Both the position numbers and the translations under genes were made by a program. A stretch of DNA of 64,000 bases, from the NCBI GenBank assembly GCA_021513715.1, contig CP084167.1, positions 704,001 to 768,000 of the forward strand, given 5' to 3'. This document shows, in pieces, positions 5,119-6,878 of this stretch. Source of the DNA: Candidatus Heimdallarchaeum endolithica (GTDB taxonomy: Archaea > Asgardarchaeota > Heimdallarchaeia > Heimdallarchaeales > Heimdallarchaeaceae). How positions within the stretch are numbered: position 1 is the stretch's first letter; every line of letters begins with the position of its first letter. Below the pieces are notes generated by a model, which had not been told where the DNA came from, made no database searches, and saw nothing but the letters and a program-made list of their open reading frames with translations.

Positions 5119-6878
5119 AAAAATTTTTTGTATAAATTCTTTAGGTTTTTAAATAAATTGCTTAATTAATAAATAGAGAAAAGAAAGTGAAGAAGAAAAA
5201 GGATTAGAAAATGGAGAAAATAGTGAGAACATTAAGAGTAAGAGTAAAAACAGAAAAATTAACGAAGTTCAAAAAAGATAGAATGAGAAAGATAACAGGA
5301 AGAGATACTAGAATAATAGAAGAATATGTAAAAATAATAAGAAAAGAAGAAGAAAAAGTAATAAGAAAAATAAGCAAACAAGGAGAGATAAGACTAAAAG
5401 TGCATAAAGGCAAGTTAGATGAACTAACACTAACAACAACAAAGAAAACAAATAAGAAAAAAAGGACAGTTGTACCCTATGATCTCAAAAAAAAGTTTCC
5501 TAATTGTTCTCACGATGAATTTCAAGAGTGTAGAGATGTAGCAGTACAACTTTATGAACAAGGATATAACAAAAAAAAGAACAAAAAAAGAAAAAAAGGA
5601 TATATTTTACCACCAGTAAAACGAGCAAGAAAACAACTAATCAATAAAAATAGATTTATCATAAAACATTTGCCTAAAGGGAAAAACACTCTTTCTCGTT
5701 GGTGGGTAGGGATAAGAGACTCATTAGACACACAAAAAAGAAAAAAACGAACACATCGAAGACTATGGATACCACTAGAAATGAGTGAATATCACCAAAA
5801 AGAAATAAGAAAAGGACAAGTAAAAAGTCTAGAATTAAAATATAACTCACAAAAAAACAGTTGGTGGGTAAATTTTCAGATAACAATTATTCCTCAAGCA
5901 GATCTCTACAAGAAAAAAAAAGTTGACTCTTCTCTTCTTCCTCCAGCTGTGCTGGGAATAGATCTGGGAGAAAAAATACCTGGAGCAGGAGTGTTATTAA
6001 CATCAACAGGTAAAATATCTCCCAATCATATTTTCTTCTGGAAAATGAAAGAATGGAAAAAAAGGAAGTATATCTATCAACAGAAAATAAGAAGATTGCA
6101 ACGAAAACTTGCAAAAAAGAAGAATACATGTAAAGACAAAAGAAGCAATAAAGGATATCAAACATTAAAAAAATTAAGAAAAAGATATCAGACGCTCTCT
6201 CATGCTTATTTATATGCTTTTATCAATGAGTTGTGGAAAGATATTGTTGAACTTACACAGGATTATAATTTAGTCGTTGTTGTTGGTTACCCCAAGGGAG
6301 TACACTCGAAATTAAGAAAAAAAGTAATGAATCAAGACTACAGACCACAGAACTCTTCTACTCGTTTTACTCGTAAAAAGGTTCACCCGTGGAATTACTA
6401 CCAAATAGTTACTCTTCTTCGACGAATGTGTCTTCTAAATGGGTTAGAACCCGAACGTATCCTCACCTTACAGGAATATCTTACCTCTTCTCTTTGCTCA
6501 AAATGTGGACGAAAGACTATTCGACCTGTTAGAGGTCTTGTTTATTGTTCTCATTGTCATTATACTCTTCACTCTGACCTTACCGGTGCAATCAACATCG
6601 GGAAATTGTTTCTTCGTTTTCTTTTTCGCCCCCGAGCATCTACACTAGTTGATTATCTTACTGGACAACACTTTAGTCTCACCTTTTATACTTCCTTCAG
6701 GGGTCTCAACCAGTGGTTGAAATAGACCTATGTACTATTATACCATAATGGTAGAATACTTAGTACTCGTGGAGTGAAGAGTTCTACTCTTCTTTATGCG
6801 TCCCACGATTCCTAGATGATGTCAGTATGCTCAAACATCTGTTTCAGCGTTTGTATTCTTCCACTGACGTAGTAGGAG
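5119..6878 (+). mobile_element. Non-autonomous tnpB-only element (IS200/IS605 or IS607 superfamily, IS1341-like)
   Basis: Contains only tnpB; no TIR or clear TSD; removing 5119-6878 restores a host reading frame (CAT GAA AAA TTG TAC). Boundaries are uncertain by a few bp because of A-runs. Confidence 0.8.
5211..6725 (+). CDS. tnpB: TnpB RNA-guided nuclease with Fanzor-like rearranged RuvC
   Basis: N-terminal RTLRVRV, RuvC-I GIDLG (D251), RuvC-II position VVGYP (G359), QEYLTSSLCSKCG (E422), Zn finger CSHC, RuvC-III HSDLTGAINI (D456). Confidence 0.9.
   Translation: MEKIVRTLRVRVKTEKLTKFKKDRMRKITGRDTRIIEEYVKIIRKEEEKVIRKISKQGEIRLKVHKGKLDELTLTTTKKTNKKKRTVVPYDLKKKFPNCSHDEFQECRDVAVQLYEQGYNKKKNKKRKKGYILPPVKRARKQLINKNRFIIKHLPKGKNTLSRWWVGIRDSLDTQKRKKRTHRRLWIPLEMSEYHQKEIRKGQVKSLELKYNSQKNSWWVNFQITIIPQADLYKKKKVDSSLLPPAVLGIDLGEKIPGAGVLLTSTGKISPNHIFFWKMKEWKKRKYIYQQKIRRLQRKLAKKKNTCKDKRSNKGYQTLKKLRKRYQTLSHAYLYAFINELWKDIVELTQDYNLVVVVGYPKGVHSKLRKKVMNQDYRPQNSSTRFTRKKVHPWNYYQIVTLLRRMCLLNGLEPERILTLQEYLTSSLCSKCGRKTIRPVRGLVYCSHCHYTLHSDLTGAINIGKLFLRFLFRPRASTLVDYLTGQHFSLTFYTSFRGLNQWLK

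Follow-up and report, generated by a model that had tools for sequence, protein, structure and literature searches.

A TnpB with a rearranged active site in Candidatus Heimdallarchaeum endolithica: probable maintenance nuclease of a non-autonomous insertion element, placed off the Fanzor stem

The locus described here raises the question of whether a TnpB without the canonical RuvC-II glutamate is still a nuclease, what it would do for the DNA that carries it, and whether its presence in an Asgard archaeon bears on the origin of Fanzors. The window, that is, the whole stretch of 64,000 nucleotides analysed, comes from a genome that consists of a single contig of 3,326,783 bp (C1 in the genome coordinates below). 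Its attribution to a Heimdallarchaeon is supported, Ca. H. aukensis being the sister species within the same genus. The best explanation of the locus, and a probable one, is that a non-autonomous insertion element of Heimdallarchaeaceae has this protein, an active TnpB with a rearranged site (TnpB2 or RIIr), as its maintenance nuclease. Rearrangement of the active site is in itself known and widespread. The coding sequence and its active-site codons are the following, in window coordinates:

5211..6725, + strand: tnpB ORF of 504 aa, with the RuvC triad D251/E422 (alternative)/D456, G359 at the canonical RuvC-II position and a C4 zinc finger
5961..5963, + strand: codon of D251 in RuvC-I, within DLG, where a Fanzor would have DPG (sequence, alignment of relatives)
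6285..6287, + strand: codon of G359, which stands for the canonical RuvC-II Glu (sequence, alignment of relatives)
6474..6476, + strand: codon of E422, the candidate alternative catalytic Glu, aligned with E467 of ApmFz2 (profile alignment)
6576..6578, + strand: codon of D456 in RuvC-III, within HSD, which is NAD in most relatives (sequence, alignment of relatives)

The four residues singled out in the original prediction are found where it placed them: D251 in GIDLG, G359 in VVVVGYP, E422 in QEYLTSSLCSKCG and D456 in HSDLTG. The immediate context of E422 is QEYLTSSLC, and the zinc-finger cysteines are C429, C432, C446 and C449. In an alignment of 123 full-length relatives covering two Asgard classes, E422, D456 and each of the four cysteines are present in 123/123 sequences, D251 in 122/123 and G359 in 121/123; this near-invariance indicates a trait of the clade and not decay. 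The protein shows the fold of the TnpB superfamily (WED/REC, RuvC and C4 zinc finger), with Cas12f/TnpB structures matching at Z 17-19, and it matches PF07282 (E 4e-10) and NF040570 (E 1e-14, under that model's cut-off). In its AF2 model (pLDDT 81), E422 comes directly after the strand E417-421, in a high-confidence region. The length of 504 aa, initially regarded as large, is typical for the clade, whose full-length members range from about 410 to 670 aa. As for the proposed Lys-rich insertions, the lysine enrichment stands (15%, vs 10-11% in two H. aukensis copies), but the stretches themselves are low-confidence loops, with pLDDT below 50 at residues 124-134 and 364-393. The tnpB coding strand is strongly A-rich.

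The original prediction overlooked the mobile element that surrounds tnpB. This element occupies positions 5115-6903 (1.79 kb). Its inverted ends are imperfect, AT stands at each junction, and tnpB is its sole gene. Together with the interrupted host gene, it comprises these features:

3608..5114, + strand: 5' part of the host gene, whose product in the sister species is an 856-aa protein containing TPR; stop codon at 4952-4954 (empty allele)
5113..5116, + strand: left junction, host CC plus the AT core; predicted TAM CCAT, consensus VCAT (twin copy, empty allele and target statistics)
5117..5141, + strand: left terminal inverted repeat, imperfect, with 18/25 positions matching the right repeat (sequence comparison)
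6877..6901, - strand: right imperfect terminal inverted repeat (sequence comparison)
6902..6903, + strand: right AT core; the right end reads TCAT (twin copy, comparison of insertions)
6904..7965, + strand: 3' part of the host gene, with TPR repeats (empty allele, domain search)

The boundaries are fixed by comparison with a 99.2% identical twin at C1:1464617-1466410, inside galT, where the rejoined flanks give the galT motif GASILHPHGQ. In the sister species the allele is empty and the 856-aa TPR gene intact, and removal of the element from the window restores the frame. The twin and the empty allele show that the element moved recently. The twin has the substitutions W164C and G459C where the family is conserved; the window copy keeps W164 and G459, and the TnpB of the twin may be impaired. 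The host gene (3608-7965) is broken twice, by its stop codon and by the element, and an IS5-like element lies just upstream. IS5-like transposase elements are found in the window at 2607-3551 and about 49013-50045, with 33-42 copies genome-wide; they have AAGCATGTCC ends and 8-9 bp duplications and are unrelated to the AT-core elements despite an internal CATG.

Genome-wide, 39 AT-core elements were recognized. Fourteen full-length elements belong to the clade of the window TnpB, 10 of them with intact ORFs, and the same kind of end is found in three elements with canonical-Glu TnpBs and in two MITE families. The canonical-Glu TnpBs (445-448 aa; C1:2688067-2689555, 2833124-2834727 and 3216735-3218224) have the right end TGAT and the target TCAT, so that the genome itself offers a control for the predicted TAM; for the 445-aa protein the TAM is predicted to be TCAT. 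Both MITE families are protein-less and have AT-core inverted ends (C1:1237052-1237434, about 18 copies, and C1:699973-700328, about 7 copies); the first has an omegaRNA-like scaffold resembling TnpB elements of other genera (L009 type), and one MITE copy breaks the genome's only Y1 tnpA at C1:925509-925878. Over the 39 insertions the target is C-AT-G, with C at -1 in 39/39, a count that is partly circular because left ends are read from CAT, and G at +2 in 32/39. A 4-bp CATG duplication is ruled out, as the fourth base differs between the junctions in several young copies; this difference and the right end G-AT of two families leave only AT common to both junctions. Each junction of a filled site has the AT, and the empty site has it a single time; this is as in an IS607 core and agrees no less well with a 2-bp duplication. 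Unlike IS200/IS605, which is marked by subterminal hairpin ends, a strict target of 4-5 nt, the lack of a repeated core and a Y1 TnpA, these elements show inverted ends, AT at either junction, a degenerate base at -2 and a preference for G on the 3' side.

The closed genome holds about 40 recently mobile elements with no identifiable transposase. The window element contains no transposase gene, and no autonomous element with matching ends appeared in a paired-end scan of the host genome or among 20 pattern matches in relatives. IS607 TnpA (MerR-HTH plus serine domain) was found neither in the element nor in the host or sister genome. IS607 elements are defined by a GG core and by the lack of terminal inverted repeats (PMC6188088); the element has an AT core and imperfect terminal inverted repeats of about 25 bp. 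It is conceivable, if rather doubtful, that the element is moved by a DDE transposase that duplicates a 2-bp AT target (or by a Y1 enzyme), and not by an IS607-like serine recombinase. The symmetric inverted ends agree with this, as does AT occurring once in the empty site and twice in the filled one; TIR-bounded DDE-TnpB groups exist (PMC10691335), and the missing IS607 TnpA in host and sister points in the same direction. However, the multi-copy DDE elements checked in the genome have other ends and duplications of 8-16 bp, the only Y1 TnpA is interrupted by a MITE and has classical hairpin ends, and the next TnpB branch is IS607-linked. This alternative touches the mobility step only; the role of TnpB would be unchanged, and it is compatible with nuclease activity.

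Two serine recombinases of 240-249 aa, each a resolvase with a short recombinase-like tail, are encoded at C1:316728-317450 and C1:405348-406097. They occur in 28/30 of the family's genomes and, among other Heimdallarchaeia, in 0/52. Their host loci are fixed and have neither TnpB nor CAT ends in the vicinity, which makes them only a weak candidate for the mobility enzyme. A more speculative and rather unlikely extension is that an enzyme so far unrecognized as a transposase, such as this pair, acts in trans to move all Heimdallarchaeaceae AT-core elements (rearranged TnpB, canonical TnpB and the two MITE families), and that TnpB with a VCAT TAM maintains them. If true, a transposon system with a host-encoded recombinase would exist next to the eukaryote stem.

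For the maintenance nuclease favoured here, the following cycle is proposed. The transcript would be processed into an omegaRNA with a guide of about 16-20 host bases taken from the right of the element. An enzyme encoded elsewhere would excise the element across the AT core, TnpB would cut the restored site, which offers the TAM 5'-VCAT and a guide match, and the break would be repaired with an occupied chromosome as template, putting the element back. With TCAT at its right end, the occupied site would escape cutting. The lineage would descend from IS607-type elements and would later have changed partners. Two features of the locus correspond to the guide RNA in this proposal:

6766..6903, + strand: omegaRNA-like scaffold, conserved among copies, with a putative pseudoknot of 6796-6801 with 6898-6903 (conservation, folding)
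6904..6923, + strand: predicted guide, host-derived, matching the empty site (empty allele)

The segment 6690-6905 folds better than shuffled sequences (z -2.6), and Rfam gave nothing above chance for the omegaRNA-like region. The last six bases of the element pair with an internal loop, and this pairing covaries between families, from AUGAGU/ACUCAU to AUGAUU/AAUCAU; the window copy has one mismatch (AUGCGU). The host genome has no other match to the predicted TAM plus guide. A plain CAT as TAM would lead to cutting of the element's own site, given that the right end TCAT directly precedes the guide match. Elements ending in TCAT have T at -2 of their target in only 1/29 cases, vs a background of 34% (p=9e-5), and the mirror position has T in 13/29 (Fisher p=4e-4 against the -2 position). 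For elements ending in TGAT, 9/10 targets are TCAT, and in other genomes T at -2 was seen in 0/18 distinct sites; one Heimdall subclade (loci L016, L019, L021 and L029) seems to have T at -2, its left boundary being unsettled. The avoidance of TCAT targets by TCAT-ended elements suggests a TAM that spares the element itself, predicted from these 29 natural insertions as 5'-VCAT and not TCAT. The avoidance of T could instead come from an orientation preference of the transposase, and 15 of the 29 sites belong to MITEs without tnpB. The same logic of self and non-self has been shown for the IS607-family CboIStron, with TGGG vs TCGG (bioRxiv 2023.11.20.567912). In a Heimdall subclade (L016, L018, L019, L021, L025, L026 and L029), a structured block with GGAGTGAAG lies upstream of tnpB and resembles the start of the window element's downstream RNA; the loci of this subclade also have a long 3' RNA ending in AACTCAT.

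A profile of 21 viral DPG proteins has the mimivirus Fanzor2 (9b0l) as its best match (E 2e-54), and their Glu falls on E467; profile-profile alignment puts E422 of the window TnpB in the same column as this Glu of the Fanzor2 group (ApmFz2 E467). In ApmFz2, E467 is a member of the solved catalytic triad (PMC11832414), its replacement in E467A abolishes cleavage, and the rearranged archaeal TvTnpB is active (both PMC10530073). The nine tnpB copies in the genome are under purifying selection (dN/dS 0.12-0.24). With Gly in the place of the canonical Glu, where G or P is expected, and Glu before the zinc finger, the protein has the features of the rearranged TnpBs (TnpB2 / RIIr; D-phi-G plus the alternative Glu, Ealt). 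The shared column, the position after the model strand and the dN/dS values make activity likely, and the earlier view of an Ealt TnpB that is probably active is supported; an active rearranged nuclease is what we consider the protein most likely to be. It is unlikely that the protein is an RNA-guided binder with weak or no catalysis (TldR-like), helping the element through binding or repression instead of cutting. The canonical Glu is gone, the putative pseudoknot of the window copy has its mismatch, and certain rearranged nucleases, such as CrFNuc-1, show no cleavage in vitro (PMC10530073); yet the three acidic residues and the zinc finger are virtually invariant across the 123 sequences from two Asgard classes, and a target bias against the element's own end is expected only where cutting is harmful.

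The arrangement had also been thought to bear on Fanzor origins. In the literature, Fanzors are recognized by DPG together with Ealt, and D-phi-G with Ealt marks a separate prokaryotic clade (PMC10711439). The window TnpB has DLG, and DPG is found in 0/123 relatives; it shares the alternative RuvC-II Glu with Fanzors and pro-Fanzors, and is not monophyletic with Fanzor1 or Fanzor2. In a search with the family HMM, Cas12f chains come out on top (1e-24 to 1e-20), ApmFz2 is fourteenth (4e-12) and Fanzor1 is absent among the 60 best matches. Structure comparison (VIA) gives Z 18.9 for AsCas12f vs 14.9 for Fanzor2; no Fanzor1 chain is among the top 50 fold matches, which is insufficient as evidence by itself. 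Two trees were built under LG+G4 from about 270 columns of the RuvC-ZnF core, with rows subsampled; they covered the Asgard relatives, other Ealt and canonical TnpBs and, as the only Fanzors, Fanzor2-type and Fanzor1-type viral proteins. The Fanzor1-type stand-ins were validated against SpuFz1 (E 4e-42) and PpFz1 (2e-46) [8gkh/9cf0], and the Fanzor2-type ones against 9b0l. In both trees the window TnpB falls within an archaeal Ealt clade of the NAD type, which two strongly supported branches separate from the DPG proteins, and both Fanzor types group elsewhere. With the Asgard group delimited from the first tree, and with motif-based and crude Ealt/Ecan labels, AU tests reject its union with the Fanzor2-type (p=0.0019) and with the Fanzor1-type proteins (p=0.0079).

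The original prediction had held that a grouping far from Fanzors would remove the evolutionary angle, and this is the grouping that the phylogeny returned; the DLG motif, both trees and both AU tests speak against a bearing on Fanzor origins. Judged by these comparisons, the window TnpB is not a pro-Fanzor and lies off the Fanzor stem. It is highly improbable that it is an Asgard representative of the Fanzor-founding lineage passed on through eukaryogenesis: the common G/P plus Ealt arrangement, the local resemblance of QEYLTSSLC to NEYLTTKTC of ApmFz2, the Asgard host and an inverted-repeat element without transposase, reminiscent of Fanzor1 elements, are outweighed by DLG with 0 DPG in 123 relatives, a RuvC-III of the NAD and not the DRD type, the HMM ranking (Cas12f first, ApmFz2 at 4e-12), the Z scores (18.9 vs 14.9), the AU tests (p=0.002 and 0.008) and the patchy distribution of the clade across Asgard. 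Membership of a different, already described archaeal branch says little about Fanzor origins, and an Asgard origin of Fanzors finds no support here. This negative result is useful because archaeal inheritance had been suggested (PMC10530073).

The clade is mainly found in Heimdallarchaeaceae and one further family, apparently within Thorarchaeia. Its direct sister clade is thorarchaeal (support 96/91 to 98/96 in the two trees) and is the published group of aCas1-associated Asgard TnpBs (Cas1H-Asgard, PMC10691335). A downstream GTTCACTCA is a reported signature of aCas1-associated TnpBs (PMC10691335) and is present in 33/36 thorarchaeal sister loci. The divergent partner gene has an N-terminal domain whose 12 best Foldseek matches are all Cas1 (best E 5.6e-3); searches of the ESM Atlas and of PDB sequences gave no matches for it. 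The sister TnpBs (loci L037-L077) are divergent from this Cas1-like / PD-(D/E)xK-like gene of more than 1200 aa, and their upstream hairpin holds GAGTGAAC, complementary to the downstream GTTCACTCA, which suggests a split, tracr/repeat-like guide RNA. A reading of the thorarchaeal copies as domesticated genes at fixed loci is rejected, since they occur in multiple copies and move with the Cas1-like partner. The window locus has neither an adjacent aCas1 gene nor a downstream GTTCACTCA, and aCas1 was not found in the host genome or in 30 family members, in a search without a positive-control genome; the Cas1 matches of the host genome sit in cas operons. In the next branch, 3/3 members stand directly behind an IS607-type MerR-resolvase TnpA. 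The simplest history is probably that of an IS607-derived lineage of rearranged TnpBs that swapped mobility partners, which would be aCas1 in Thorarchaeia and an AT-core enzyme encoded elsewhere in Heimdallarchaeaceae. The lineage thus seems to have switched its transposase partner in a way similar to Fanzors but independently of them. This switch, a multi-copy family of Asgard TnpBs with a TAM predicted from natural insertions, and the roughly 40 mobile elements form the modest but testable remainder.

Compared with known systems, the window TnpB shares with Fanzor1, Fanzor2 and the cyanobacterial pro-Fanzors (PMC10711439, PMC11832414) the position of the alternative Glu and an association with varied transposon types, and differs from Fanzors in DLG, in its NAD-type RuvC-III, in its separate phylogeny and in its prokaryotic host. 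From the Cas1H-Asgard TnpBs, its direct sisters, it is distinguished by the element ends, which are CAT/TCAT inverted repeats. With the IS607 family (IS607, IS1535, CboIStron; PMC6188088, bioRxiv 2023.11.20.567912) the element has in common a 2-bp core that recurs at each junction, short motifs repeated close to the ends, the predicted discrimination between TAM and right end, and IS607 TnpA in the next branch; it differs in a core that is AT within C-AT-G, in true terminal inverted repeats and in having no TnpA in the element or genome. With the rearranged prokaryotic TnpBs (TnpB2 / RIIr; PMC10530073, PMC10691335), among them TvTnpB of Thermoplasma volcanium, the window TnpB shares the RuvC-II Glu-to-Gly exchange, the alternative Glu before the zinc finger, D-phi-G in RuvC-I and a 3' omegaRNA-like module. 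Relative to TvTnpB, which has an IS605 TnpA, it is larger (about 500 aa) and lies in an inverted-repeat, AT-core element without tnpA.
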